A stretch of 64,000 nucleotides of DNA from Acidobacteriota bacterium (GCA_016935015.1 JAFGRT010000018.1:22693-86692), one strand, 5' to 3'. Positions 2,812 through 24,623 are shown, counted from the stretch's first letter. Numbers and translations: made by a program. The notes: generated from the letters alone by a model not told the origin.

Positions 2812-4083
2812 ATGATTCAAGATCGTTTGCGGGTCGCCGTTGTGGGGGCCGGCGTGGCCGGTTTGACCGCCGCCTACATTTTGCAACGGATTCATCAGGT
2901 TACCCTCTTCGAAAAGAATTCCTATCTCGGCGGTCACACCAACACTGTTCACATCCCGGAAGGTCCCGATGCCGGCACCCCGGTGGATACCGGCTTCATC
3001 GTCATGAATCACCGCAACTATCCCTTGCTGACGCGTCTTTTTGAGCAACTGAACGTGGAATTGCGGGACAGTGACATGTCATTCGGTTACTGGTGCCAGA
3101 GCTCGGGGCTTCAGTATTCCGGGTCCGGCCTGACCGGCATGTTCGCCCAGCGGCGCAATCTTCTCCGCCCGGCCTTCCTTGGCCTGCTCCGCAATATCAT
3201 GCGCTTCTACCGGCAAGCCAACGCGGATTTGGCCGCGGCAAACCTCGGCGAATTGAGTCTGGGCGATTATCTGAAGCGCGGCCGCTATTCCCCCTGGTTT
3301 GTTCACCACCACTTGCTGCCCATGGGCGCGGCCATCTGGTCCACGCCCTGCGACCGGATGCTGGAGTTCCCCGCCGCGTCCTTTCTGCATTTTTTTCGCA
3401 ATCACGGGCTGCTCTCCCCGCGGAACCGCCCGCAATGGCGCACGGTGGTCGGCGGCAGCCAGACATACGTGCGCCAGATGCAGCGGACCTTCACGGGCCC
3501 CGCGCATCTCGACACGGCGGTGGCGGCCGTCACCCGTCACGAGAACGGGGTGGAGGTCCGGACCGCCGCCGGAGAAACCCTCCCCTTCGACAGGGTGGTC
3601 ATCGCCGCCCATGCCGATGAGGCCTGGCAAATGCTGGCCGACCCCTCGGAGCAGGAAGCCCGGCTGCTGCAACCCTGGGAATACGCCACCAACGGGGTAG
3701 TGTTGCACACGGATACGACGGTCCTGCCGCCCATTCGTCGAGCCTGGTCTTCCTGGAACTTCACTCGGGAGGCGTCCGCGGATGATGAACATCCCATTTC
3801 ACTGACCTATGACATGAACCGACTGCAGGGGCTGCCAACGAAACAGCGCTATCTGGTGAGCCTGAACCGGCGCCGGCCAGTGGATCCCCGCTCGGTGGTG
3901 ATGGAAACGACCTACACCCACCCCATGTACACCCAGACAGCCATGGATACGCAACCCCAGCTGGCGGAATTGAATGGCGGTCGTCACACCTATTTTTGCG
4001 GAAGCTATTTTGGTTACGGCTTCCATGAAGACGCCGTGCGTTCGGCGGTGCAGGTGGCTCAAAAAATGGGGCTGGACCTATGA
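2812..4083 (+). CDS. FAD/NAD(P)-binding amine oxidase-like oxidoreductase
   Basis: N-terminal Rossmann motif VAVVGAGVAGLTAAYIL...EKNSYLGGHTNT. It is the conserved partner of DUF1365/CFAS clusters. Its stop overlaps the next start (ATGA). Confidence 0.8.
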   Translation: MIQDRLRVAVVGAGVAGLTAAYILQRIHQVTLFEKNSYLGGHTNTVHIPEGPDAGTPVDTGFIVMNHRNYPLLTRLFEQLNVELRDSDMSFGYWCQSSGLQYSGSGLTGMFAQRRNLLRPAFLGLLRNIMRFYRQANADLAAANLGELSLGDYLKRGRYSPWFVHHHLLPMGAAIWSTPCDRMLEFPAASFLHFFRNHGLLSPRNRPQWRTVVGGSQTYVRQMQRTFTGPAHLDTAVAAVTRHENGVEVRTAAGETLPFDRVVIAAHADEAWQMLADPSEQEARLLQPWEYATNGVVLHTDTTVLPPIRRAWSSWNFTREASADDEHPISLTYDMNRLQGLPTKQRYLVSLNRRRPVDPRSVVMETTYTHPMYTQTAMDTQPQLAELNGGRHTYFCGSYFGYGFHEDAVRSAVQVAQKMGLDL

Positions 4084-6080
4084 GATCCCGCATTTACGTC
4101 GGCGAAGTCATGCATGCCCGGATCCATCCGGTCCGTCACCGCTTTCGTTATTCGCTCTATTTGTATCTCTTCGATCTCGACGAGTTGCCTGACCTGGGCC
4201 CTGCCCTTTGCGGTTTCAGTTACAACCGTTTCAACATCGTCAGCCTGCATGACAAGGATTACCTCCACGGCCATGGTTCCATCAAAGAGAACGTGCGGCG
4301 CCTGCTCGCCACCCACGGCATCGAGAACGGAATCGGCCGCATCGAGTTGCTGACGGCGGCCCGCTATTTCAACTTTGTCTTCAATCCCGTCAGTTTCTAC
4401 TACTGCTACCACCCGGACGACCGGTTGCGCTGCGTCGTGGCCGAGGTGAACAACACTTTCGGCGAGAAGCATATCTACATCCTGGACGAACCGGTGGCCG
4501 GTCAGTCGGGGAAGGTCACCCACTATCGGCATGAAAAGGAATTCCATGTCTCCCCCTTCATGAGCCGGGAAGGCTATTACGAATTCCGCCTATGGCAACC
4601 GGACGATCAGTTGCGCATCCAATTGGATTTATTTCAGCAGGGTCGCCGCATGCTGCTGACCCAGGTGACCGGCACCGCCCGCCCGCTGACCTCCCGGCAG
4701 TTGCGCCACACCATTCTGCGGCATCCGCTGGCGGCGGCCGTGACCATGGCCCGGATTCATTGGCAGGCAGCCAAACTCTATTTCGTGAGGAAGTTGCCGT
4801 TGCATACAAAACCCATTGCCGACAGCCCGGGAACCATCGCCGTCAAACCCCCTTCACGCTTCGAACGCCTGTACTATTCCCTCGTGACCCGCTTCCTGCG
4901 CTCTTTGGCAGGGGCCCATATCCCTCTGGTCCTGCCGGGCGGAAAGACGGTCCATTGGGGCGATCCCGCAGCGCCGGAGTCCCCGGCCATCACGGTCCGG
5001 CGCCACCGCTTCTTTCGGAAAATGGTCTGGGGCGGCTCCATCGGTTTCGGCGAAGCCTACGTGGATGGCGACTGGGATTCCACCGACCTGACCGCCGTCC
5101 TGAAGGTATTCGCTCGCAACATCGGGCCAATCAATCGCACGAAAAACGTCCTGGGCTGGGCCGTCCGCCCGCTTAATCGCTTGCGCCATGTTTTGCGGCG
5201 GAACACCCGCCCGGGCAGTCGACGAAACATCGCCGCCCACTATGACCTGAGCAATGCGTTTTTCCAATCATTTCTCGACGATGCCATGATGTATTCCGCC
5301 GCTGTTTTCCGCAGTCCCGCCGAGTCGCTGGAGGAGGCCCAGCGCCACAAGATCCGGCTGCTCATCGAGAAAGCCGGAATCACCGCCACTGACCATGTGC
5401 TGGAAATCGGCTCGGGCTGGGGCGGCTTCGCCATCCAGGCGGCAATGGAAACAGGCTGTCGCGTCACGTCCGTCACTCTTTCCCGCGAACAAATGGCCTA
5501 TGCCCGGGAACAGGCCCACCTGGTCGGCCTGGAGGAACGCATTTCCTTCGAGTTGCGGGATTATCGCGATCTCATCGGCACATTCGACAAGATCGTGAGT
5601 ATCGAAATGCTGGAAGCCGTGGGGCATGCGTTCTACGGCACATTCTTCGCCGCCTGTGAACGTTTGCTCGCTCCCGGAGGGAGAATGGTCCTGCAGGTGA
5701 TCACCATTCCCGACCAGCGATACGAGAACTACCGCCGCAATCCGGACTGGATTCAGAAGTATATCTTTCCCGGCGGACTGCTCCCCTCACTGACGGTGCT
5801 GTGTCAGGCCATGTCCCGCCATTCGCAGCTCGTTGTGGAGCATCTGGAAAACATCGGGCCCCACTACGCCCGCACTCTGGCTGAGTGGCGGCACCGGTTC
5901 GAGGCAGCGTGGGAGGACCTGATGGGGATGGGATACGATGAGCGTTTCCGACGCATGTGGCGCTACTATCTCTGTTACTGCGAGGCCGGATTCGCCGAGA
6001 AGATCATCAACAACCTGCAGCTGGTATTATCTCGTCCGGGTCGCCCGACTGGGAGCGCGACCGTTCGCGTGTCGTGCTGA
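4080..6080 (+). CDS. Fusion protein: DUF1365 domain (N-terminal ~250 aa) + cyclopropane-fatty-acyl-phospholipid synthase-like SAM-dependent methyltransferase (C-terminal ~400 aa)
   Basis: It is a single uninterrupted 666-aa ORF. The N-terminus MRSRIYVGEVMHARIHPVRHRFRYSLYLYLFDLDELP is DUF1365. The C-terminus has the SAM motif VLEIGSGWGGFAIQAA and the CFAS C-terminal signature (YERFRRMWRYYLCYCEAGF). Confidence 0.8.
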   Translation: MRSRIYVGEVMHARIHPVRHRFRYSLYLYLFDLDELPDLGPALCGFSYNRFNIVSLHDKDYLHGHGSIKENVRRLLATHGIENGIGRIELLTAARYFNFVFNPVSFYYCYHPDDRLRCVVAEVNNTFGEKHIYILDEPVAGQSGKVTHYRHEKEFHVSPFMSREGYYEFRLWQPDDQLRIQLDLFQQGRRMLLTQVTGTARPLTSRQLRHTILRHPLAAAVTMARIHWQAAKLYFVRKLPLHTKPIADSPGTIAVKPPSRFERLYYSLVTRFLRSLAGAHIPLVLPGGKTVHWGDPAAPESPAITVRRHRFFRKMVWGGSIGFGEAYVDGDWDSTDLTAVLKVFARNIGPINRTKNVLGWAVRPLNRLRHVLRRNTRPGSRRNIAAHYDLSNAFFQSFLDDAMMYSAAVFRSPAESLEEAQRHKIRLLIEKAGITATDHVLEIGSGWGGFAIQAAMETGCRVTSVTLSREQMAYAREQAHLVGLEERISFELRDYRDLIGTFDKIVSIEMLEAVGHAFYGTFFAACERLLAPGGRMVLQVITIPDQRYENYRRNPDWIQKYIFPGGLLPSLTVLCQAMSRHSQLVVEHLENIGPHYARTLAEWRHRFEAAWEDLMGMGYDERFRRMWRYYLCYCEAGFAEKIINNLQLVLSRPGRPTGSATVRVSC

Positions 6081-10783: not shown

Positions 10784-11950
10784 TCAATCTCCATCCAGCA
10801 GATTGCCCAGCCCGCCCAGCACCGATCCTTCACCCTTGCGGCTGCCGCCGGCGGATGGTGCATGCGTGTAGATGCGGTCGGCCAGACGGCTGAAGGGTAA
10901 CGACTGCAGGTAAATTTTGCCGGGTCCGGTCAGGGTGGCGAAAAACAGGCCTTCGCCACCGAAAATAGCGGTTTTGACATTACCGACAAACTGAATATCG
11001 TAGGTCACCGTCTGCTCGAGAGCCACCAGACACCCGGTGTCCACCCGTAACGTCTCGCCCGGACCGAGTTCCTTTTTGATGATGGTACCGCAGGCGTGGA
11101 CGAAGGCCTTGCCGTCGCCGTCCAGCCGTTGGAGGATGAAACCCTCGCCGCCGAAGAAGCCGGCCCCGATTTTCTTGTTGAAGGCGATGCCCACAGCGGT
11201 TCCGTAAGCCGCGCACAGGAAAGCGTCCTTCTGACAAATCAGGGTGCCGCCGTGCTCTTTCAGCTCCACCGGAATAATTTTTCCCGGGTACGGCGCGCCG
11301 AAGGCCACTGTCTGTCTGCCCTGGCCCTGATTGGTGAACATGGTGATGAACAGGCTTTCACCGGTGATGACGCGCTTTCCGGCATCCAGCAGCTTGCCCA
11401 TCAGGCCCCGCTGAGCGTTGCTGCCGTCGGAAAATCGGGTTTCCATCTGGATGCCCGACGTCATATACATCATGGCCCCCGCTTCGGCGATGACCGTTTC
11501 GCCTGGGTCCAGGACGATGTCCACGAACTGCATGTCGTCCCCATGCACGTGGTAGTCGATTTCATGGCATTTTTGACCCGGCGGTGCATAGGTCGGCAGG
11601 TGCGCGGCATCGGGTATGCCGGCGGCGGCGCCGGCGGTAGCCGGTTGCGCTGTTGCTTGATCCACCGGTTGTGCTAACGCCTGATCCGCCGGCTGCGCGG
11701 CAGTTTGAGGCGCTGTTTGCGCAGCCGGCTCGGGCGCGGGCTGCGCCGCGGGTGCCGCTGCCGGCGGCTGCAGGTAGGATTGCAATTCGGGCACCTGCCC
11801 CAGTTGGGTCCAGTCCGACATTCCCTGCTTGAAGATGTAGCTCTGAACGTTCAATTGACCATTTCGTATTTGCCGGCCCAGATCCTCAATGGTCATGGGA
11901 CCCTGGGTCTGGCCGTTAACCGCAGTGTACCAAATCTTTTCCATGCTCAT
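10784..11950 (-). CDS. AIM24/TIGR00266-family protein with N-terminal GYF-like (DUF4339) domain and P/A/Q-rich linker
   Basis: The N-terminus is [50 protein letters not shown] (DUF4339 pattern). The C-terminal ~250 aa is AIM24-like ([11 protein letters not shown]..., [28 protein letters not shown]). Confidence 0.7.
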
Positions 11951-11959
11951 ACCCCATCT

Positions 11960-13597
11960 CTACAGATTCGCGTTCCACTTATCCTTTTCTATTGTGGCCA
12001 AAATTTCCTTGGTTTTCAACAGCATGGCCCGGGCCTGAGGAATGACTTCCAACGCCTTGTGGATCTGCTCGTCCCCTTCCGCCCGGATCTTGAAACCAGC
12101 CAGGACACCGAACACCCGCGTATACAGCTCCGACTTGATGCCGCGCTGGATCATGTCAAGGTTGTGGTTGAAATCGGTGTCGGTATAACTGACCTTTATC
12201 TCACTCAAAAACCCTTTGAAATCCTTGATGACTTCCTCCGTGACCTGAAAATGGCGCATGGCTTCCGTGTTTTTGAGGCGCTCTTTGGGCAAGGATTCCA
12301 CCTTGCCCTGCATGGCCTGCGTCGCAAATTTGAAAAACACATCCTTCGAATACATCACCATTTCGAAACGGTTCAGCTTACGCGCCAGCTGAACGATATC
12401 GGGCTGGATCCCCCCGCCGCCATACACCTTGCGCTGGCTGAGGGTATACCTGACATCTACATCGGAGAAATCAACATTTTTCCGGCGCCGGGCGTTGTAG
12501 TAGTCGTAGATGGATCCGGAATAAGGGCGCTGCAAGCAGCGGCCGCTGGGAGCGTAGTACTTGCCCGTGGTCAGGGCCAATCCCGAACCGTCGGCAAGCC
12601 GGTAGACGGATTGAACCAGGCCTTTGCCGAAACTACGCTCGCCAACGATGATGCCCCGATCATTGTCCTGAACAGCGCCGGCCACGATTTCCGAAGCACT
12701 GGCGGAATTGTTGTTGATCAGGATGACCAGCGGCACCTTCAGGTCACCCCTCTGGCGGGCGTTGTATTTCTGTTCGTCTTCGCCGTCCCGGCCCATGGTC
12801 GAGACAATGGGCGCACCCTTGGGCAGAAACTCCTGCGAAATCTTGATGGACTGCGTCAGATAGCCGCCCGGATTGTCCCGCAGATCGATGACTAGGCCCT
12901 CCAGCGAATCGACGTTCAGTTTTTCCAGGGATTTCATCAATTCATCATGAGTCGTCTCGGAAAAGTGTTCGATCTTCACATAGCCGATATTGGGACGGAT
13001 CCGGTACGCATAGTTGATGGTCCATTTGGGAATCTCGTCGCGAATGACATCCAACTCCAGCGGTTCATCCTTCCCCGGCCGCAGCACGGTGATGTGGACC
13101 CTGGTCCCTTTAGGGCCCTTGAGGTTGTCAATAACGTCGTCCACTTCCCAGTCGTCGATGGACTCACCGTTGACCTTGAAGATCACGTCCCCCGCCTGCA
13201 GGTCCACCTTGGCCGCCGGCGTACCGGGATCGGGTGGTTCGACAATGATGATGCGCCCGCTGCCCCGGGTGAGGGGTCGAATCCGGATGCCCAGACCGAA
13301 ATAGTAGCCGCTGTTGTCCTCCTCCATCTGCTTGTATTCCTTGGGACTGAAAAAGGCACTATGCGGATCCAGTTTTTGGAGCATCAGGCGGATGGAACTG
13401 TAGATCAGCTCCGACGTCTCCGGCTTGCGCGCCGCGTTCTGTTCGAGTATGGCCAGAATCTCGGCATAGTTGCGATACAGCGATTCCTTGGTGGAGACCT
13501 GTTTGTCATCGGCATTCGCTATTTCTCCCAGGAAGCCGCCCGCCAGGGAAGCCACCAGGAGAAACAGTAGGGTTACTAAATAAAAATTTTTTCTCAT
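11960..13597 (-). CDS. ctpA: S41-family carboxyl-terminal processing protease (signal peptide, PDZ + peptidase domains)
   Basis: PDZ region (GLGIRI...GDVIFKVNG) and S41 catalytic region (GLVIDLRDNPGG..., SASASEIVAGA). The first ATG at 13597 is preceded by GGAG. A 10-bp gap separates it from the downstream AIM24 gene. Confidence 0.85.
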   Translation of the reverse strand: MRKNFYLVTLLFLLVASLAGGFLGEIANADDKQVSTKESLYRNYAEILAILEQNAARKPETSELIYSSIRLMLQKLDPHSAFFSPKEYKQMEEDNSGYYFGLGIRIRPLTRGSGRIIIVEPPDPGTPAAKVDLQAGDVIFKVNGESIDDWEVDDVIDNLKGPKGTRVHITVLRPGKDEPLELDVIRDEIPKWTINYAYRIRPNIGYVKIEHFSETTHDELMKSLEKLNVDSLEGLVIDLRDNPGGYLTQSIKISQEFLPKGAPIVSTMGRDGEDEQKYNARQRGDLKVPLVILINNNSASASEIVAGAVQDNDRGIIVGERSFGKGLVQSVYRLADGSGLALTTGKYYAPSGRCLQRPYSGSIYDYYNARRRKNVDFSDVDVRYTLSQRKVYGGGGIQPDIVQLARKLNRFEMVMYSKDVFFKFATQAMQGKVESLPKERLKNTEAMRHFQVTEEVIKDFKGFLSEIKVSYTDTDFNHNLDMIQRGIKSELYTRVFGVLAGFKIRAEGDEQIHKALEVIPQARAMLLKTKEILATIEKDKWNANL

Positions 13598-13795
13598 TCC
13601 CACTCCACTGGGACAAATTTACCTGCCATCAAGCCCTTCGATCATCCGCATCAGGCTGTTCCGTACGTCCAGTCCCCCTGCGGCGCCGGCCCGCCGGCAT
13701 CCAACACTATAGCATATCACCCGGTCGGAGTAAACGCCGAGTCGCTTTGCCTTCGGCGGCCGATCAGCCGATGCGACCCGGCTCCGAAGCCAGGT

Positions 13796-15511
13796 CTATG
13801 CGGTCTGGTCGGCAAACACCGGCATGGTGAAGTAGAAGGTGGAGCCGGAGCCCAGCCGGCTGCGAACACCGATCTGGCCGCCCAGTTCCTCCACCATCTT
13901 GCGGCAGATATACAGTCCGAGGCCCGTGCCCTGGATATTTTTGGTCTTCGCATCATGGACACGGTAATATTTCTCAAACAGCTTGTTGAGTTGGTCCGGG
14001 GCGATACCGATCCCCCGGTCCGCAACCTGAATTTCCACGAATTCCCCTTTTTTCCGACCGGTAACGATCACATCGCCACCACGCGGGGAATACTTGATGG
14101 CGTTGGAAATCAGGTTGTCCATGATCTCCATCAACCGGTCGAAATCCGAGTACATGGCCGGCAGATCCCGATCATAGACAAACCGGATCCGATGATGGGG
14201 CATCTGCCGCATGGCGAACGCTTCCTCCAGTTTCTGCATATCCACTTTTTCCCGACAGTAGGCCATTTCACCCGATTCGAGGCGAGTGATCTTGAGGGCA
14301 CCGTCGGCCAACCGGCGCAGGTGTCCGATCTGGGCGAAAATGGAATGGAGGTACTCTTTCTTGGCGTCGTGGTCCAGATCGGGACGAATCAACAGCAACT
14401 CGGAATAGGCGTGAATCACCGTCAGCGGATTCCGGAAATCATGGGAAACGATGCTGATCAGTTCGTTCTTCATCTTGTTTAGATGCTCGAGCTTCTGTTT
14501 GCTTTCATTGATTTCGCGGAAAAGAAGAAAATTTTCCAGGGCGATGTGGATCTGGTCTCGGATGGTCTCCAGGACCTTCCGGATCGGTTCCTCATCGAAG
14601 TAGAAGGGCTGGCGGCTCTCCAGATACAGATATCCCCCCTGGCTGCCGCCATCCTCCAGCGGCAGGGCCGTCCGGCAGCGCGAGTCCCGCAACACGGAAG
14701 GGGCCTTCTCCGGAATCCGGTTGTGGGCCAGCAGTCCTCTGACCACGGCCGGAATCAATTCTTCGTCATCGGCTGTGTTGAAATTAAACAGGATATCGTC
14801 CTGGACCATTACCAGCAGCTGGGCGTAGCTGAGATCCATCTTATCGGCCAGAAAAACCAGCGCGGCCCGGAATCCCTCGGCTTTTTGGAGAGAGGAAGCC
14901 AGGATCCGGCTGAAATCATTGATGATCTGCAGCTGCAGTGTACGCCGCCGGACCTCTTCGTAGACGCGGGATCGTTCAATGGCCGCCGTCACCTGATCGG
15001 CGAATTTTTCGAAAAGCTGGATGTCCTGGATGCTGAAGGCCTCACGCTCCTGATTGTCCTTCAAGGTGCGGCGGGATGTGTTGATCACGCCCAGCAGTTT
15101 TTCCTTCTCCCCCGCTTGGGAAATAAGGGGCACGCACATCAGGGATTTAATGGGCGGCATCCGGGAATCACCACCCGGCTTGAAATCCGGGCTCTCCTCA
15201 GGATTTTCCACCAGCATGGCCCGGCGGGTGGCAGCCACCTTGCCGACGATCCCCTCATCCACCGAAAATACCACGGCCGGCTCTTCGGAAGCCCATGATT
15301 TCCAACCGGCAAAGGTCTTGAATACATTTTCCCGGTCGTCATACATCATGACGGAGACAGCATCGGCATCCAGCAGCCGGGCGGTGCTTTCGGCGATTCG
15401 TTCCAGCAGCGGTTTGACTTCCAGGCAGTAATTGATCTCCCGGTTGATTTCGCACAACACGTTAAACTGACGAGCCAGAACATCCTTGCCGGCGGCGGTT
15501 TTTTTGTTCAC
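13796..15511 (-). CDS. Cytoplasmic sensor histidine kinase: tandem GAF domains + HisKA + HATPase_c (no TM, no adjacent response regulator)
   Basis: H-box ISIVSHDFRNPLT, N-box ISNAIKYS and G-boxes DRGIGI/GTGLGL. The GTG start at 15511 is preceded by AAGGAGAG and lies only 12 nt downstream of the cdd stop. Confidence 0.85.
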   Translation of the reverse strand: MNKKTAAGKDVLARQFNVLCEINREINYCLEVKPLLERIAESTARLLDADAVSVMMYDDRENVFKTFAGWKSWASEEPAVVFSVDEGIVGKVAATRRAMLVENPEESPDFKPGGDSRMPPIKSLMCVPLISQAGEKEKLLGVINTSRRTLKDNQEREAFSIQDIQLFEKFADQVTAAIERSRVYEEVRRRTLQLQIINDFSRILASSLQKAEGFRAALVFLADKMDLSYAQLLVMVQDDILFNFNTADDEELIPAVVRGLLAHNRIPEKAPSVLRDSRCRTALPLEDGGSQGGYLYLESRQPFYFDEEPIRKVLETIRDQIHIALENFLLFREINESKQKLEHLNKMKNELISIVSHDFRNPLTVIHAYSELLLIRPDLDHDAKKEYLHSIFAQIGHLRRLADGALKITRLESGEMAYCREKVDMQKLEEAFAMRQMPHHRIRFVYDRDLPAMYSDFDRLMEIMDNLISNAIKYSPRGGDVIVTGRKKGEFVEIQVADRGIGIAPDQLNKLFEKYYRVHDAKTKNIQGTGLGLYICRKMVEELGGQIGVRSRLGSGSTFYFTMPVFADQTA

Positions 15512-15523
15512 GATTTACTCTCC

Positions 15524-15919
15524 TTACTCCGCCAGAAAATCGCCGTCGAAAGGAAACGGCAGCAGCTCGCGCATGGTGAACGTCCGGCTGTTTCCGGATG
15601 GATTGGCCAGGATGACGGGGATATCGCCGCACAATTCCCAAATAATCTGCCGGCAGGCCCCGCAGGGGGGTGTCGGTTCCGGCGTATCGGCGACGACGCA
15701 CAGCATCCTGAACCGGCGCTCCCCTTCGCTGATGGCCTTGAAAATGGCCACCCGTTCCGCGCAGATGGTCAAGCCGTAGGAGGCATTCTCGATGTTGCAG
15801 CCGGTGTACACTACACCGGAGTCCGCCAACAGCGCGGCGCCTACCCGAAAATTCGAGTAGGGAGCGTATGCGCGTTCCAAGCTCTGCAGCGCCCGGGTCA
15901 GCAGCTTTTTTTCGTTCAC
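15524..15919 (-). CDS. cdd: Cytidine deaminase
   Basis: Zinc-ligand motifs CAERVAI and PCGACRQ. The GTG start overlaps the PNP stop (GTGA). Length ~131 aa. Confidence 0.8.
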   Translation of the reverse strand: MNEKKLLTRALQSLERAYAPYSNFRVGAALLADSGVVYTGCNIENASYGLTICAERVAIFKAISEGERRFRMLCVVADTPEPTPPCGACRQIIWELCGDIPVILANPSGNSRTFTMRELLPFPFDGDFLAE

Positions 15920-16731
15920 GGCAAACACTCCACAATTTCCAGCAGCAGCTGAATAAAATTCTGACTGACCGCTGTCGATATGTCCAGTACTTCCTGATGA
16001 CTGAGCGGCTGTTCCTGCAATCCGGCCGCCTTGTTGGTGATGCAGCTGATGCATAAGACCGGAAGTCCAAGCTGGGCGGCGGCGATGGCCTCCGGGACCG
16101 TGGACATGCCCACCGCATCGGCGCCCCATTGCCGGAACAGGCGGATTTCCGCGGGTGTTTCATAGGACGGACCGCTTACCGCCAGATAGACACCCTCGCG
16201 CAAGGAAACACCCTGACGGTCCGCCGTCGCCCGGGCGATGCGGCGCAATTCTGCCGGATAAACCGCCGAAAGATCAGGGAAGCGAGGGCCAAAACCGGAG
16301 TCCACTCCGAGCAACGGATTAAACCCCATAAAATTGATGTGATCGGTGACCACCATCAGATCACCCGGTTCGAACGCGGGATTGATCCCGCCGGCGGAAT
16401 TGGACAGCACAAGATAACCGATCCCCAGTTCATGCAGCACCCGCACCGGGAACACCAGCTCATTTCCGCTGAAGCCTTCGTAATGATGGATCCGACCCTG
16501 CATGACCGCCACGGCCTGTCCGCCCAGGCGGCCGAGATGCATTACCCCCGCATGCCCGGCCACCGAACTGACGGGAAAATGAGGAATTTCCGCATAGGGG
16601 ATACGGACGGGATTTTCCACGGTTTCCGCCAGGGCACCCAAGCCGGAACCCAGCACGATCCCCACCGCCGGCTCACCGAGTGCCCGCTGTCGGATGAAGT
16701 CCGCGGCCTCTTTGACCTGTTGTGCCTTCAT
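15916..16731 (-). CDS. Purine nucleoside phosphorylase (PNP/MTAP trimeric family)
   Basis: 271 aa. It has the family segments GSGLG, VMQGRIHHYEG, VGMSTVPEAIAA and CISCITNKAAG. Confidence 0.85.
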   Translation of the reverse strand: MKAQQVKEAADFIRQRALGEPAVGIVLGSGLGALAETVENPVRIPYAEIPHFPVSSVAGHAGVMHLGRLGGQAVAVMQGRIHHYEGFSGNELVFPVRVLHELGIGYLVLSNSAGGINPAFEPGDLMVVTDHINFMGFNPLLGVDSGFGPRFPDLSAVYPAELRRIARATADRQGVSLREGVYLAVSGPSYETPAEIRLFRQWGADAVGMSTVPEAIAAAQLGLPVLCISCITNKAAGLQEQPLSHQEVLDISTAVSQNFIQLLLEIVECLP

Positions 16732-16734
16732 GGA

Positions 16735-17961
16735 TCAACCTCCGATGATACCGGCGATGGTGGCCGTCAGGCACGTGGCCAGGCTTCCGCCCAGCAAGGC
16801 ACGCAGGCCCAGTCTCGCCAGTTGGTGTTTCTTGTTGGGGGCCAACGGCCCGATCCCGCCAATCTGGATACCAATGGAACTGAAATTGGCGAAACCGCAC
16901 AGAGCATAGGTGGCGATCATCTCGCTGCGGGTACCCAGCGAGTGTTCGGCCATCAGCCTGGACAGGTCGGCATAGGCCACAAATTCATTGAGGATGACTT
17001 TCTTCCCCAACAGTCCTCCCACCTGAACCGCCTCGGACCAGGGCACGCCCATGACCAGGGCCAGCGGCGCGAGCGCCCATCCCATGAGCTGCTCGAGGGT
17101 CAGGGCTTCGTTCAGCAAGGGTTCTGTCAGTCGTGCCAGTATGCCGTTGGCCATGGCGATCAGGGCGATAAACGCGATGAGCATGGCAGCGACGTTGATG
17201 GCCAGCTGCATCCCCTTGGCGGCGCCACGGGAGGCGGCATCGATGATATTAGCGTCATCGGATTTCACCTCGATGGTGACGCGACCGGCGGTTTTGGGCT
17301 CATCCGTTTCCGGAATCAGGATCTTGGCCATCATAATGGCCGCCGGCGCCGCCATAATGCTGGCTGAAATGAGAAAGGCGGCATTGATGCCGAGCACATC
17401 GATGAACGTCACCAGGATGGCACCGGAGACGGTGGCCATCCCGCCCACCATGAGACACAGCAGCTCCGAGCGGGTCATCTCGGCGATGTAGGGGGCCACC
17501 AGCAGGGGAGCCTCCGTTTGGCCCATGAAGACGTTGGCGGCCACGGCCAGCGATTCGGCGCCGCTGATGGCCAGCAACCGCTTCATGATCCGGGCCAGGA
17601 AATACACGATCCATTGCATCACACCCAGGTAGTAAAGGACGGAAAAAATGCAGGAAATAAAAATGATGGTGGGCAATATCTTGATGGCGAAAATCACACC
17701 ATAGGTCTGCTCATCCATCAGGCTCCCGAACAGGAAGCGCGATCCATCATCGGCGAATTGACCCAGCAAGGTCACTTTTTGGGCAAACCAGCGCAGAGCC
17801 TCGATGCCGGGGCTGAACCGGAGCAGCACAAACGCCAGTAGGAATTGAAGGCCCAGCCCCCACAACAGAGTTCGGGGCCGGATGGCTCGGCGGTCGGTGG
17901 AGAAGAGCCAAGCGATGCCGATGATGACTGCCAGACCGATAAGCCCCGTGAATCGTTCCAC
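16735..17961 (-). CDS. nupC: Concentrative nucleoside transporter (NupC/CNT family)
   Basis: Multi-TM protein with CNT signature regions (GQTEAPLLV..., CGFANFSSIGIQIGG). GTG start at 17961 with GGAG RBS. The upstream part of the track ORF is a non-coding extension. Confidence 0.8.
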   Translation of the reverse strand: MERFTGLIGLAVIIGIAWLFSTDRRAIRPRTLLWGLGLQFLLAFVLLRFSPGIEALRWFAQKVTLLGQFADDGSRFLFGSLMDEQTYGVIFAIKILPTIIFISCIFSVLYYLGVMQWIVYFLARIMKRLLAISGAESLAVAANVFMGQTEAPLLVAPYIAEMTRSELLCLMVGGMATVSGAILVTFIDVLGINAAFLISASIMAAPAAIMMAKILIPETDEPKTAGRVTIEVKSDDANIIDAASRGAAKGMQLAINVAAMLIAFIALIAMANGILARLTEPLLNEALTLEQLMGWALAPLALVMGVPWSEAVQVGGLLGKKVILNEFVAYADLSRLMAEHSLGTRSEMIATYALCGFANFSSIGIQIGGIGPLAPNKKHQLARLGLRALLGGSLATCLTATIAGIIGG

Positions 17962-18010
17962 TTTTTCTCCTTGGGCCCGGACACTGCACACGATGCCCGG
18001 AGCATCAGGC

Positions 18011-19318
18011 CTAGCCGTTGATCCGGTTCCGGAGCAGAGGCGGGGACGGCACCGGCTGGTCGCTGATGCGGAACGCTCCGTCCAGACGCCGCCGGGCCTC
18101 ATCCTTTTTGGCCTCATCGTTGTAGTGGATCTCCGCCAGCACCTGTCCCGCTGCAACCGGGTCCCCCTCTTTGGCCTGCAGGACAATACCCACGGCCGGA
18201 TCAATCGGGTCTTCCTTGCGCAACCGGCCACCGCCCAGCAGCAGGCTGGCCATACCGACGGCCGCGGCGTCGATGACGGTCAGATAGCCAGACTGGTCGG
18301 CCACCAACGACATGGTCCCCCGCGCCCGAGGCAGGCGTTCGGGTTCGTCCACTACCCGAGCGTCTCCGCCCTGAAAGGCAATGCAATTCCGAAAAATCGC
18401 CAGCGCCCGGCCGTTCTCGATTTGCCGGCGAGCCAGCCGGCGGGCTGCCGACAGATCAGGCGCCAGCGCCGCCATGTGGATCATTTCGGCGGCCAGTTCC
18501 ACGGAAAGGGTGGTCAAATCCTCCGGTCCTTCGCCACGCAGCGTCGCGATGGATTCCACCACTTCCAGCGCATTTCCGACATTGTGCCCCAACGGCTGAT
18601 CCATGGCCGTAATAAGGGCCACTACATCCTTGCCCATGGATCGTCCGGTAGCCACCAGGGCGTCGGCGAGTTCCGCCGCTTGCCGGTCCGTGGTCATAAA
18701 CGCTCCGCGACCGACCTTGACATCCAGCACGAGACCGTCGATTCCCTCCGCCAATTTTTTACTCATGATGCTGGCCACGATGAGCGGGATGCTTTCCACC
18801 GTTGCCGTTACATCGCGCAGAGCGTAAAGATTGCGGTCGGCCGGCACCAGCTGGTCGGTCTGCCCGATGAGGCAGAGGCCGATCTTCTCGACCCCGCGCC
18901 GGAACCGATCCACCGGCAGATTCACCTGGAATCCGGGGATGGACTCCAGCTTGTCCAAGGTCCCGCCCGTATGCCCCAAGCCGCGACCGCTGATCATGGG
19001 CACCTTGACGCCGGCCGCCGCTGCGACGGGCGCCAGGATGAGGGAGGTTTTGTCCCCGACGCCGCCGGTGCTGTGCTTGTCGATTTTCCGGCCGGGGATT
19101 CCTGCCAGGTCCAGGACGTCGCCGGAACCGATCATGGCCTGGGTCAGGGCTCCCATCTCCTCTGCACTCATGCCGTTCAGATAAACCGCCATGAGCAGGG
19201 CGCTCATCTGGTAGTCGGGCACATGTCCGTTGGCGTAGGCGTCGATGATAAAATTGATTTCAGAGGGGGAAAGGGCGTGTCCGTCACGCTTTTTTCTGAG
19301 AATTTCGATTGCGGTCAT
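18011..19318 (-). CDS. pdp: Thymidine/pyrimidine-nucleoside phosphorylase
   Basis: N-terminal TAIEILRKKRDGHALSPSEINFII plus TP family glycosyltransferase and C-terminal domains. 435 aa from MTAIEIL. Confidence 0.85.
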   Translation of the reverse strand: MTAIEILRKKRDGHALSPSEINFIIDAYANGHVPDYQMSALLMAVYLNGMSAEEMGALTQAMIGSGDVLDLAGIPGRKIDKHSTGGVGDKTSLILAPVAAAAGVKVPMISGRGLGHTGGTLDKLESIPGFQVNLPVDRFRRGVEKIGLCLIGQTDQLVPADRNLYALRDVTATVESIPLIVASIMSKKLAEGIDGLVLDVKVGRGAFMTTDRQAAELADALVATGRSMGKDVVALITAMDQPLGHNVGNALEVVESIATLRGEGPEDLTTLSVELAAEMIHMAALAPDLSAARRLARRQIENGRALAIFRNCIAFQGGDARVVDEPERLPRARGTMSLVADQSGYLTVIDAAAVGMASLLLGGGRLRKEDPIDPAVGIVLQAKEGDPVAAGQVLAEIHYNDEAKKDEARRRLDGAFRISDQPVPSPPLLRNRING

Positions 19319-19342
19319 GAAGCCGACCCGCCGGTTGTGGTG

Positions 19343-19377
19343 TCGCAGAGACAAAAAAGGCTACCAGAAGAGAGCCG
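19343..19377 (-). terminator. Rho-independent terminator downstream of rpsU (AAAAAA-GGCTACC-loop-GGTAGCC-TTTT; U6 on minus transcript)
   Basis: 7-bp perfect stem at 19349-19355 / 19367-19373, flanked by A6 and T4. It lies between the rpsU stop (19403) and the pdp start (19318). Confidence 0.6.
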
Positions 19378-19402
19378 GTAGCCTTTTGGAAAAATCGGAC
19401 TA

Positions 19403-19609
19403 TTATTCGTACTTGCGCTGCAAGTTGCGCATTTTTTTACGGAGCCTCTTGCGGGCCAGCGCCTGCTTGATGCGGCGCTTTTCTCCGGGCTTGAGGAAGA
19501 AGGAGTGCTTTTTGACTTCTTTGATGATATCTTCCTGTTGCACTTTTCGCTTAAAACGGCGGAGAGCATTTTCCAGACTCTCGTTGTCATTTACCTCGAT
19601 GTAAGCCAC
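19403..19609 (-). CDS. rpsU: 30S ribosomal protein S21
   Basis: 68 aa, MAYIEVNDNESLENALRRFKRK...; highly basic C-terminus; canonical S21. Confidence 0.9.
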   Translation of the reverse strand: MAYIEVNDNESLENALRRFKRKVQQEDIIKEVKKHSFFLKPGEKRRIKQALARKRLRKKMRNLQRKYE

Positions 19610-19770
19610 GTGTTTTCACCTCCTCTCCGCTTGAGCATTCGAGCGAATTTATAAGTATAGAAATACGACGCGACCCTGTCAAGCAATTATTCAACGCTGC
19701 CGTCGCAAAAACCGGCCGTAAATCATGCCAATAAAAGATGCAATGATCCGCGTTCGGACAAAAAATTCAC

Positions 19771-19799
19771 TTTACATCACGGGATGACTGTGCTAAGGT
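19771..19799 (+). promoter_or_regulatory. Candidate sigma-70-type promoter for rpsO-pnp (TTTACA-17 nt-TAAGGT)
   Basis: -35 TTTACA at 19771-19776, 17-nt spacer, -10 TAAGGT at 19794-19799. It is ~36 nt upstream of the TTG start of rpsO, which has a GAGGAGG RBS. Confidence 0.35.
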
Positions 19800-19834
19800 A
19801 TCCGTTCTTTTGAACTCGTTCTGAGGAGGTCGAC

Positions 19835-20104
19835 TTGTCTCTACTGAAAGAGGAAAAACAGGACATCATCAAAAAGTTCGGGCGCGATGACCACGACTCC
19901 GGCTCACCTGAAGTCCAGATTGCCCTGTTCACGACACGGATCAACCAGTTAAATGAACACTTTAAAACCCACGCCAAGGACCATCACTCCCGGCGGGGAC
20001 TTCTCCGTCTGGTCGGTCAGCGCAAACGCCTGCTGGAATACCTGAAGCAGCAGGATATTGAACGATATCGTGCATTGATTAAAGAACTGGGTCTCAGAAA
20101 GTAG
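19835..20104 (+). CDS. rpsO: 30S ribosomal protein S15 (TTG start)
   Basis: 89 aa, canonical S15 ([44 protein letters not shown]...). GAGGAGG RBS. Confidence 0.9.
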
Positions 20105-20282
20105 CGCAGTCTTTACTCCCACCCTTACGTCTGTTCGGGATCACAAAATGAGGGGTAACACTCCCAGACGCAGCACATACCATTTTGTTTTCCCCCATCA
20201 TTCTACTTACATCGGGATGATCAGAAGTTGCATGGGAACGAACCTGCCCGAATGGGTTTTATTTTAAATCGGAGGAATTTCT

Positions 20283-22478
<2,196 letters not shown>

Positions 22479-22510
22479 TCATTTGTTGTCAGTTGATCGC
22501 TTGACGAAGC

Positions 22511-22543
22511 AGGGGAAGCGCCAGCGCTTCCCCTCTTTTTATT
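22511..22543. terminator. Bidirectional rho-independent terminator between convergent pnp and RNase E/G genes
   Basis: AGGGGAAGCGC-cag-GCGCTTCCCCT (11-bp perfect stem) followed by CTTTTTATT. The T-tract overlaps the TAA stop of the minus-strand RNase gene. Confidence 0.75.
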
Positions 22544-24623
22544 GGGTGGCGATATCGAACGTGGGGATCGGCAGTAACGGATCAGCGATCAGGACCAGTT
22601 CCCGCTGGAAACGCGCCTTGATCTGGTTGGCTACCGCTTTCTCGTCCGTCTTCAGGGCGGTTGTCACGGCCGGGTTGGCCCGCACCACGATTTCCCGACT
22701 GCTCAGGGAGGATTGCATCCTTTCGATCTGGGAGTAGATGTCATAGCAAACGGTGGAAACGGATTTGGTATACCCGGAACCGCCACACATGGGGCAGGCC
22801 TCGGAAATGTTCTTTTCCAACGCGCTGGCTGTCCGTTTGCGAGTCATAATCACCAGGCCGAACTCATTGAAAGGCAGAACCTTGGACGGCGACTTGTCCA
22901 GCTTCAGCTCGTTAAAAATAACATCCATAACCGTCCGTTTGTTCTTTTTCTCCTGCATATCGATGAAATCCATCACGATGATCCCGCCGAGATTGCGCAA
23001 CCGGATCTGGCGGATGATCTCCCGGGCGGCATCCAGATTGATCTTGGCAATGGTGTCCTCAAAATTGTTGGATTTCCCCACGTATTTGCCCGTGTTCACA
23101 TCGATGGCGATAAGGGCTTCGGTGTGGTTGATGACGATAAATCCACCGGAGCGCAGCCAGACCTTCTGTTTGGTGGCTTTCTGAATATCAGGCACCAGGT
23201 TGAAGAAATCGAATATGGGTTGCACCCGGGTGTACAGCTTCACATTCGGCAACATTTCCGGCATGAACCGGTCGATGAATTCCACGATGTTGGCATATTC
23301 GTCGGGATCGTCCACCCAGATGCTGTTGTACGTCTCGTCCAGCCGATCGCGGAGGGTCCGGATCACCAAATCCTCCTCCTCGTAAAGGGGCGCCGGCGCG
23401 CTGAGCTCGGCATATTTTCCCTGGATGGTTTCCCAGGTCCGCAACAGGAAATTCATATCCTTCAGAATATCCGCCTCGCTGCAGCCTTCGCTGGCTGTCC
23501 GGACGATGAAACCGCCCGAGCGGTTCTTCATGTTGGTGCGGATGATGGAGCGCAGCCGTCGCCGCTCCTTGTCTTCCTTAATCTTGCGGGACACACCGAC
23601 CCGGTTGAAGGTAGGCATGTACACCAGCATCCGTCCCGGAATGGAAATGTGGGAGGTGATACGGGCGCTTTTCAGAGCCATGGGCTCCTTCATCACCTGC
23701 ACAATGATTTCCTGGCCCTGGCGCAGCATGGACGAAATATTGGCCGATGGATCATCGGTGGAAACCTGACTCTTGCGTCGTTTCCGCCGGCCGCCGCTCC
23801 GCCGGCCGCCATTGTCATAATGGACTTCACTGCCGGGGAGGGGCAGCTCGGCAGATCTTTCCGCCTGTTCGAGTCCGTTAGCCTGCTCTGTTTCCTGCTC
23901 CAAGAGATGCTGGGTCAGCTGTGTTTCAGGATGGATCTTCCCTTGGTCCGAAGTCGCCTGCTCACTCGGTTGGTCGGGTTGGGATGGGGCCTCCGCTTCT
24001 TTCGGCGGAACGGATTTCTTCCGGCCACGTCCTCTCTTGCGCCGCTCGGTCTTGGCCGCGGCTTTCCCTTCCGTCGCGGGCGCGGCACCCGAATCCCTTT
24101 CCTCGGTTCGCTCCCCGTCCGCTGCAGCGACCTGTTTCTCCGCCGCCTTGGGCTCAGACTCGTCGACCGACCGTCGCGCCCGGGTATCGCCGGGTACCGG
24201 CTCGGCATCCTTCCTTACGGGCTCCTCCAACGGCAGTTCCTTCTTTGATTCCGGAGCCTCGTCTGTTTTCTTCTGTTCGCCATCGGATTTTTTGTCCGTG
24301 TGGGGCGTGGTATCCTTTTTTTCGGGGCCCTGCCTGCCGGAATCCGCCTTGATCGGTTCATCATCGTCGACGATGGTGTCCTTTAGATCTGCAAATTCCT
24401 CGAGAAAATCCGTCACATAGAGAAATGCGTTCTTGTCCAGTCCGATGTCGACGAAAGCCGACTGCATGCCGGGCAACACTTTTCCAACCTTGCCTTTGTA
24501 AATGTTTCCCACCACGCTGACTTCATTCCGACGTTCGATATGGTATTCCACCAGAACGTTATTCTCCATGATGGCAGCGTGCACTTCAAATGGCGTGACG
24601 TGCACCACCATGTCACGGTTCAT
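22539..24623 (-). CDS. rng: RNase E/G-family endoribonuclease (RNase G-like, no C-terminal scaffold) with a ~200-aa highly charged insertion inside the S1-domain region
   Basis: The N-terminal S1 region is VVGNIYKGKVGKVLPGMQSAFVDIGLDKNAFLYV. The catalytic core (IIVQVMKEP...ITSHISIPGRMLVYMPT..., CPMCGGSGY zinc link) follows a long K/R/E/D/P/S/T-rich segment that Rng and Rne of model organisms lack. Confidence 0.85.
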   Translation of the reverse strand: MNRDMVVHVTPFEVHAAIMENNVLVEYHIERRNEVSVVGNIYKGKVGKVLPGMQSAFVDIGLDKNAFLYVTDFLEEFADLKDTIVDDDEPIKADSGRQGPEKKDTTPHTDKKSDGEQKKTDEAPESKKELPLEEPVRKDAEPVPGDTRARRSVDESEPKAAEKQVAAADGERTEERDSGAAPATEGKAAAKTERRKRGRGRKKSVPPKEAEAPSQPDQPSEQATSDQGKIHPETQLTQHLLEQETEQANGLEQAERSAELPLPGSEVHYDNGGRRSGGRRKRRKSQVSTDDPSANISSMLRQGQEIIVQVMKEPMALKSARITSHISIPGRMLVYMPTFNRVGVSRKIKEDKERRRLRSIIRTNMKNRSGGFIVRTASEGCSEADILKDMNFLLRTWETIQGKYAELSAPAPLYEEEDLVIRTLRDRLDETYNSIWVDDPDEYANIVEFIDRFMPEMLPNVKLYTRVQPIFDFFNLVPDIQKATKQKVWLRSGGFIVINHTEALIAIDVNTGKYVGKSNNFEDTIAKINLDAAREIIRQIRLRNLGGIIVMDFIDMQEKKNKRTVMDVIFNELKLDKSPSKVLPFNEFGLVIMTRKRTASALEKNISEACPMCGGSGYTKSVSTVCYDIYSQIERMQSSLSSREIVVRANPAVTTALKTDEKAVANQIKARFQRELVLIADPLLPIPTFDIATQ

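Follow-up and report, generated by a model that had tools for sequence, protein, structure and literature searches.

A histidine kinase gene conserved at the end of a nucleoside uptake and catabolism cluster in a small clade of uncultured Acidobacteriota

In a stretch of 64,000 nucleotides (nt) from an Acidobacteriota bacterium (GCA_016935015.1 JAFGRT010000018.1:22693-86692), referred to below in its full length as the window, five contiguous and co-directional genes on the minus strand code for a pyrimidine-nucleoside phosphorylase (pdp), a nucleoside transporter (nupC), a purine nucleoside phosphorylase (PNP), a cytidine deaminase (cdd) and a histidine kinase. The kinase gene follows cdd in every orthologous locus for which genomic context could be recovered, and the reading that on balance we favour is that of a soluble HisKA kinase forming the last cistron of a nucleoside operon, with a proposed role in sensing. 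For a real functional tie between the kinase and nucleoside metabolism we see roughly even chances.

The cdd stop codon (TAA, 15526-15524) and the kinase start codon (GTG, 15511-15509) are 12 nt apart, and a Shine-Dalgarno sequence, AAGGAG (15525-15520), straddles the stop codon, just as had been stated in the original prediction, which was made from the sequence of the window. A spacer of 12 nt has no room for either a promoter or a terminator, and a search for such signals between cdd and the kinase gene, the presence of which had been named as a possible refutation, returned nothing significant. In particular, a scan for sigma-70-type promoters found no promoter-like site within cdd, the site nearest to the junction being a weak match (9/12) at 15986-15958, which falls in the 3'-terminal part of the PNP gene. 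A hairpin of seven pairs at 15561-15541 was considered as a terminator and rejected, since it falls within the coding sequence of cdd and is absent from the minimum-energy fold; the 3' end of cdd together with the junction is not significantly structured (z = -0.02 versus shuffled sequences), and 11 terminator-like matches were observed where 8.8 +/- 2.4 are expected from shuffles. The most economical reading, to which we attach a good deal of confidence, is that the kinase is encoded on the same mRNA as the nucleoside genes; the co-expression claimed at the outset is thereby supported, on the strength of the 12-nt spacer, the stop/start overlaps seen in relatives and the conservation of the junction. 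The spacing further suggests that translation of cdd and of the kinase gene is coupled.

The kinase of the window is identical to a protein from an Acidobacteria metagenome-assembled genome and belongs to an orthologue family of 14 clusters (clusters at 90% identity in a set of 5.8 billion proteins) with at least 54% identity, after which identity drops to 32%. Genomic context was recovered for seven of the eight orthologue lineages, with kinase identities of 54-91%, from four GTDB species representatives (L001-L004), six metagenome contigs (L009-L014) and further loci (L027-L032 and L039) that came from look-ups of the proteins P0004, P0007, P0014 and P0128. The arrangement pdp-(nupC)-PNP-cdd-kinase is found in the same order and orientation in every one of these orthologous loci, and conservation of the cdd-kinase junction in relatives, a point on which the prediction had been staked, is borne out as adjacency in 7/7 lineages with context.

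The length of the junction varies across the family. The cdd stop and the kinase start overlap by 4 nt as GTGA in L009, where the kinase is 91% identical, and by 1 nt as TAATG in L027, where it is 69% identical, and the gap amounts to 13 nt in L001, 34 nt in L031, 53-58 nt before the long-form kinases of L002-L004 and L039, about 80 nt in L010 and 132 nt in L029. In L009 (7975-8003) sense codons stand in place of the stop codon that cdd has in the window, and cdd extends for five further codons to a TGA that overlaps the GTG of the kinase gene; the GTGA overlap is a recent tightening of the junction. The long-form orthologues (P0006 and P0010-P0012; loci L002-L004, L010-L014 and L039) have an extra N-terminal segment of approximately 105-110 amino acids (aa) without a Pfam domain, which occupies what would otherwise be a gap of 370-400 nt after cdd.

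The pairing has persisted through considerable change around it. Adjacency of cdd and the kinase gene is kept despite the loss of nupC in L010 and in L031/L032 (pdp-PNP-cdd-kinase), so that in these lineages the kinase is linked to the enzymes without the transporter. It is also kept where the upstream flank has been replaced, and synteny with the lineages of about 55% identity is lost outside a block that reaches from rpsU, the gene for ribosomal protein S21 upstream of pdp, to a gene for an AIM24-domain protein downstream of the kinase.

Several points weigh against the favoured reading, the first of which concern transcription. Support for co-transcription consists of spacing and conservation; in two lineages the gap, at about 80 and 132 nt, is long enough to hold an independent promoter; and the scan covered the sigma-70 consensus only, in a phylum whose promoter types are poorly known, such that sites inside cdd could escape it. 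The last two points also speak for a rival explanation, in which the kinase gene has a promoter of its own, located either in the spacer or in the 3' part of cdd, and is not co-regulated with the nucleoside genes. This we regard as improbable, given that cdd and the kinase gene are 12 nt (window) or 13 nt (L001) apart, that stop and start overlap in L009 and L027, and that no promoter-like site is present in cdd or in the longer spacers, of which the two longest (L029 and L010) contain neither a sigma-70-like promoter nor an intrinsic terminator. Moreover, because no terminator is present, an internal promoter would only add to the read-through from upstream and would not exclude it.

The remaining points concern function. 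The rpsU gene upstream and the genes for an S41 peptidase and the AIM24 protein downstream are also largely syntenic and have no obvious link to nucleosides, therefore adjacency alone is no proof of shared function; all orthologues fall within one small clade and provide few independent observations; no clue from sequence or fold points to a nucleoside-derived ligand of the first sensor domain; and no nucleoside genes lie beside those distant full-length kinase homologues whose contexts were checked. These are also the observations on which the main rival explanation draws. It assumes that the kinase shares the mRNA and has a signalling role unrelated to nucleosides, a start codon overlapping or abutting the cdd stop having made separation hard and the adjacency having been inherited through a young and narrow clade. 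That distant homologues with two GAF domains are found orphaned after thiL would agree with this, as it suggests that such kinases lodge in assorted housekeeping operons. However, the adjacency is kept at kinase identities of 54-59%, at which no synteny is left beyond the rpsU-to-AIM24 block; it is kept with junctions of 34-132 nt, so that it is not locked by an overlap; and it outlasts independent losses of nupC and of the S41 gene. We therefore give this explanation distinctly less credence than the favoured one, without dismissing it.

Alternatively, the kinase might belong functionally with the S41 (Ctp-type) peptidase and AIM24, for example in a module for envelope or proteolysis stress, and merely abut the nucleoside genes. 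In 6/7 lineages the S41 gene follows the kinase gene, with AIM24 and with gaps of 55-190 nt that contain no terminator match. In L027/L028, however, genes on the opposite strand take the place of S41 and AIM24 behind a kinase that is still 69% identical and whose start is overlapped by cdd. As it is absent downstream of the kinase gene there, the S41 gene is not part of the conserved core. The gap between kinase and S41 always exceeds the tightest cdd-kinase gaps, and in the window a weak promoter-like site (13734-13706; TTTACT-17-TATAGT with TG) precedes S41, which together make this explanation very unlikely.

Outside the clade, the nearest homologues of pdp are 59-61% identical, and one of them is labelled Candidatus Sulfotelmatobacter. 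The corresponding loci of the same phylum (L037 and L038) resemble the window in having cdd, pdp and nupC in one co-directional cluster, but differ from it in the order cdd-pdp-nupC-nucleoside hydrolase and in lacking punA, the kinase gene and rpsU; their neighbours code for a dihydropyrimidinase-type amidohydrolase and for proteins with CN_hydrolase, DeoC and cytosine/purine permease domains. Because this cluster exists without the kinase, the latter is a clade-specific addition, and these comparisons indicate that the cdd-kinase pairing is a clade-specific innovation and not a chance neighbourhood.

The nearest full-length homologues of the kinase outside the clade share only 27-32% identity with it, and in these both GAF domains are found by Pfam. 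In L034, L035, L040 and L041 they constitute a separate orphan GAF-GAF-HisKA family, located after thiL in L040 and after thiL plus an acetyltransferase gene elsewhere (L034 and L035, where the kinase gene is also convergent with a gene for a Vut_1/YhhQ-type transporter); the contig of L041 ends there, so that only the acetyltransferase gene is visible. One further distant homologue follows a receiver gene. A HMMER scan with the first GAF domain (GAF-A) against 1.84 billion representatives returned, among the best 150 matches listed, only P0010 (63% identity) from the clade, the others having at most 32% identity; these were mostly multi-GAF proteins of more than 1,000 residues and included no informative sister family.

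The coordinates of the genes, of the kinase domains and of the putative signals are compiled in Table 1. In the window, a nucleoside transporter and nucleoside phosphorylases lie in one co-directional cluster, as in catabolic operons of the deo/dra-nupC-pdp type. The nupC product matches all three Pfam domains of the CNT family (Nucleos_tra2_N, Gate and Nucleos_tra2_C), and the zinc motifs CAE and PCGACRQ are present in that of cdd. On these assignments, pdp-nupC-PNP-cdd is predicted to be an operon by which an uncultured lineage of Acidobacteriota takes up and catabolises nucleosides. The genes had been described as joined by 4-nt overlaps, which holds for PNP and cdd, whose stop and start overlap as GTGA (15919-15916), and not for pdp and nupC, which are separated by 49 nt with AAGGAG 5 nt upstream of the nupC GTG, nor for nupC and PNP, where 3 nt lie between the nupC stop and the PNP ATG. 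The right-hand limit of the cluster had to be corrected as well: position 19354 corresponds to a TTG within the U-tract of the rpsU terminator, and the true start of pdp is the ATG at 19318, 36 nt less, which yields a protein of 435 aa as in homologues and in the public gene call and which the family models match from the first residues.

Table 1. Genes, kinase domains and putative signals of the nucleoside-kinase cluster and its flanks (positions in the window).
Feature	Position	Strand	Remarks
sigma-70-like promoter	19654..19682	-	TTGACA-17-TATACT, 11/12; upstream of rpsU
rpsU (ribosomal protein S21)	19403..19609	-	68 aa, GTG start
rpsU intrinsic terminator	19345..19387	-	13-pair hairpin and U-tract; ends about 26 nt before pdp ATG
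pdp, pyrimidine-nucleoside/thymidine phosphorylase	18011..19318	-	435 aa, ATG start; NF004490, 562 bits
nupC, CNT-family nucleoside transporter	16735..17961	-	408 aa, GTG start
PNP, punA-type purine nucleoside phosphorylase	15916..16731	-	271 aa, ATG start; NF006054, 361 bits
cdd, homotetrameric-type cytidine deaminase	15524..15919	-	131 aa, GTG start; TIGR01354, 150 bits
cdd-kinase junction	15509..15526	-	TAA stop, 12-nt spacer GGAGAGTAAATC, GTG start
soluble orphan histidine kinase	13796..15511	-	571 aa, GTG start; GAF-HisKA-HATPase_c
kinase GAF-A, residues 12-186	14954..15478	-	canonical GAF
kinase domain 2 (GAF-B), residues 187-338	14498..14953	-	shortened, degenerate GAF
kinase DHp/HisKA region, residues 339-415	14267..14497	-	phospho-acceptor H357
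kinase HATPase_c catalytic domain, residues 416-566	13814..14266	-	N, G1, F and G2 boxes
S41 C-terminal processing peptidase with PDZ domain	11960..13603	-	192 nt downstream of kinase
GYF_2/AIM24-domain protein	10784..11950	-	end of syntenic block

Among the larger open reading frames (ORFs) scanned over some 35 kb between about 1160 and 39000, neither a regulator of the DeoR/SorC, CytR/LacI or GntR type nor a linked deoC or deoB was found. The neighbouring genes comprise, amongst others, rpsU, rpsO, pnp and the genes for RNase E/G, S41, AIM24, a metallo-beta-lactamase-fold protein and TatD, and the signalling genes closest to the kinase, some 20 kb away, code for a Ser/Thr kinase and for an ECF sigma factor.

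Pfam recognises in the kinase one GAF domain over residues 34-179 (GAF_2, E = 6e-18; GAF, E = 8e-17), HisKA (PF00512) over residues 347-414 (E = 5e-11) and HATPase_c over residues 456-565 (E = 3e-29). The phospho-acceptor H357 within SHDFRNPL is invariant in the 14 orthologues and in 36 homologues, and N466, D498/G500/G502, F512 and G528-L533 are invariant across the 14 orthologues. As the catalytic motifs are thus invariant, the kinase should be an active enzyme, i.e. a catalytically competent histidine kinase of class I (HisKA). No window of 19 residues exceeds a Kyte-Doolittle mean of 1.33, for which reason the protein is taken to be soluble, in keeping with the initial statement that it has no transmembrane segment. 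An AlphaFold2 model (pLDDT 85) contains two alpha/beta sensor domains connected by long helices to a core made up of the dimerisation and histidine phosphotransfer (DHp) and the catalytic (CA) domains; it superposes on HK853 and YycG, matches bacteriophytochromes, and in its sensor part resembles the GAF-A/B tandem of PDE5A (TM score 0.62 over about 355 columns). By mean pairwise identity among the eight lineages, DHp is the most conserved part (0.80), followed by GAF-A (0.63), with the invariant motifs GWKSW, EGIxG and NxSRR, by CA (0.61) and by GAF-B (0.43) as the least conserved part.

The tandem of GAF domains that had been described is therefore to be qualified: Pfam sees only the first, and the second emerges from profile comparison and predicted fold. 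Domain 2 (residues 187-338) has no Pfam match in the window copy, the best value for any family member being E = 0.08. A derivation of GAF-B as a duplicate of GAF-A was rejected, since profile-profile comparison shows no similarity between the two (probability 0.4%). A match is found, in turn, between the family profile of domain 2 and residues 197-364 of P0019, a distant homologue (hhalign 94%, E = 8.5e-8); in Pfam these residues are a clear GAF_2 domain (E = 1e-34), and because of this alignment domain 2 is regarded as a shortened, degenerate GAF. It lacks the GIVG segment, and its predicted fold (pLDDT about 90) matches the PDE5A tandem. Only GAF-A resembles a ligand binder, and from its sequence it is the likely ligand-binding sensor.

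As to the ligand, the best sequence matches of GAF-A among solved structures are the GAF domains of PDE5, PDE2, PDE10 and CyaB2 that bind cyclic nucleoside monophosphates (cNMPs; E = 2e-6 to 1e-4). The motif NKFDE marks cNMP-binding GAF domains (PMC11977230). In GAF-A only part of this motif is present: F159 and D163 are retained, the NK dipeptide is missing (N144-x-S-R-R in the family), and the position of the glutamate is taken by I164 in the alignment with PDE5. A model of GAF-A by itself (pLDDT 83) has a canonical GAF fold and is about equally like HD-GYP, PtsP, PDE6, PDE10, CyaB2, Lcd1, DosS and fRMsr, with identities of 17-21%. The assignment as a cNMP-binding GAF was rejected, given the incomplete motif and a fold search that does not separate the types of GAF domain. 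Compared with the tandem GAF domains of PDE2, PDE5, PDE6, PDE10 and CyaB2 (PDB 3lfv, 1mc0 and 1ykd), from which its best sequence matches come, GAF-A thus differs in its motif, and the folds of PtsP and HD-GYP match it equally well or better.

The DosS and DosT kinases of Mycobacterium tuberculosis (PDB 2w3d) share with the window kinase the succession of GAF-A, GAF-B, DHp and catalytic domain and the lack of a membrane segment. DosS and DosT bind haem via a histidine in GAF-A, have a DHp domain of the HisKA_3 type and are encoded next to their partner DosR. The window kinase, by contrast, has a DHp domain of the HisKA type (PF00512) and not of the HisKA_3 type, and its GAF-A (residues 12-186) contains no histidine, nor is any histidine invariant there in the family. 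Because of this absence, haem ligation of the DosS type and the Cys-His motif of bilin-binding GAF domains are excluded, and both cofactors were rejected. A metabolite of the pathway itself (a nucleoside, a base or a pentose-1-phosphate) is one candidate only, and as such a doubtful one.

No partner response regulator is encoded nearby, which agrees with what had first been noted. A search with CheY, Spo0F and PhoB detected no receiver domain in the ORFs of at least 70 aa throughout the 64 kb of the window, and none within 8-10 kb in the orthologous loci, except for that of an unrelated hybrid kinase on the opposite strand, 4 kb away in L027; as a positive control, the same search recovered receivers in ten unrelated loci, including the one expected in L033. 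The kinase, although of the two-component HisKA type, has no adjacent cognate response regulator. As DHp residues are known to determine partner specificity, the high conservation of DHp suggests a fixed partner regulator.

The favoured reading, the last cistron of a nucleoside operon with a sensing role, can be put as follows. Being made from the same mRNA, the kinase would be present in amounts that track expression of the operon, and in the closest relatives it would probably be synthesised by ribosomes that re-initiate after cdd. GAF-A would bind a cytoplasmic small molecule, and the signal would be relayed via the degenerate GAF-B and the long connecting helices to DHp, whereupon the kinase would phosphorylate one conserved response regulator encoded elsewhere. 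As a working hypothesis, the nucleoside-catabolic status of the cell might in this way be signalled either to the operon itself or to a regulon located elsewhere. In its most specific form, in which GAF-A binds a nucleoside, a nucleobase or (deoxy)ribose-1-phosphate and the kinase controls nucleoside scavenging via an unlinked regulator, the hypothesis is speculative and rather unlikely to hold; if true, nucleoside catabolism would here for the first time have a two-component sensor of its own, where model bacteria use one-component repressors of the DeoR or CytR type.

The upstream flank bears on how the operon itself is transcribed. The rpsU gene lies directly upstream of pdp in every orthologous locus that reaches that far, and the rpsU promoter is the sole good promoter match upstream of the cluster. 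The terminator hairpin between rpsU and pdp is also found in L009, L027, L001, L002, L004, L010 and L031, with compensatory changes in its stem (GGCTACCGG/CCGGTAGCC, GGCTATCAG/CTGATAGCC and GGCTGCCGG/CCGGCGGCC), and is the only element common to the rpsU-pdp spacers of the relatives; in L031 roughly 20 nt remain between its U-tract and the start of pdp. As no space for a sigma-70 promoter is apparent before pdp, transcription of the nucleoside operon may depend on read-through from the rpsU promoter or on a promoter of non-canonical type. A riboswitch or leader of the operon was also considered and rejected, as an Rfam scan covering 11000-21000 (E <= 1) yielded a single match, below threshold, to the S15 leader (19780-19891; 20.2 bits versus a gathering score of 39.5, E = 0.4), which sits just upstream of the start of rpsO and overlaps it. 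In the region 19780-24623, rpsO and pnp, the latter coding for PNPase, are on the plus strand, divergent from rpsU, and the RNase E/G gene is on the minus strand; these genes of RNA decay beyond rpsU are found in the window and in its two closest relatives (L009 and L027) and not in the lineages of about 55% identity. Elsewhere in the window (4029-6077, plus strand), a single ORF of approximately 670-680 aa combines DUF1365 (residues 22-262) with a cyclopropane-fatty-acyl-phospholipid synthase domain (CMAS, residues 398-664) in an apparent fusion. DUF1365 and CMAS are usually encoded as neighbouring genes.

In Escherichia coli, the CytR/DeoR regulon covers cdd, udp, nupC and deoCABD. The systems of E. 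coli and Bacillus subtilis resemble the window in that a NupC/CNT transporter is clustered with a pyrimidine nucleoside phosphorylase and other nucleoside-catabolic enzymes in one transcription unit, presumed in the case of the window, but they are controlled by one-component repressors (DeoR/SorC and CytR/LacI) that bind pathway intermediates, the dra-nupC-pdp operon of B. subtilis being under the control of the DeoR repressor (PMC11229326). The cluster of the window differs from them in having the kinase as its last cistron, in the presence of punA and cdd and in the absence of deoC/dra. GAF domains occur in about 9% of histidine kinases, and SgmT of Myxococcus xanthus is a studied example of an orphan, cytoplasmic kinase of this kind, its partner, DigR, being encoded elsewhere (PMC3509222). 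SgmT is like the window kinase in being soluble and encoded apart from its partner, and its N-terminal GAF domain serves as the main sensor; unlike the window kinase, it is a hybrid with receiver and GGDEF domains and does not belong to a catabolic operon. In a limited literature search, no histidine kinase was found to have been described as part of a nucleoside catabolic operon or as sensing for one. The wiring had been called unusual, and this applies to the arrangement, which is confined to one small clade and for which no published precedent was found, and not to the kinase type, cytoplasmic orphan GAF kinases being common.

What is described here is hence a set of ordinary parts, newly arranged, in one small clade without cultured members. 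These Acidobacteriota inhabit sediments and anaerobic digesters (L002, L004 and L036, for instance, come from digester and sludge samples), where debris of nucleic acids is a major nutrient. With all parts being common domain types and the clade being small, the finding is a reasonable lead and not a surprise. A nucleoside operon that consistently ends in a kinase gene would nevertheless represent a regulatory design unlike the one-component repressors of model bacteria, and an orphan GAF kinase would gain from the operon an unusually clear candidate for its physiological context.

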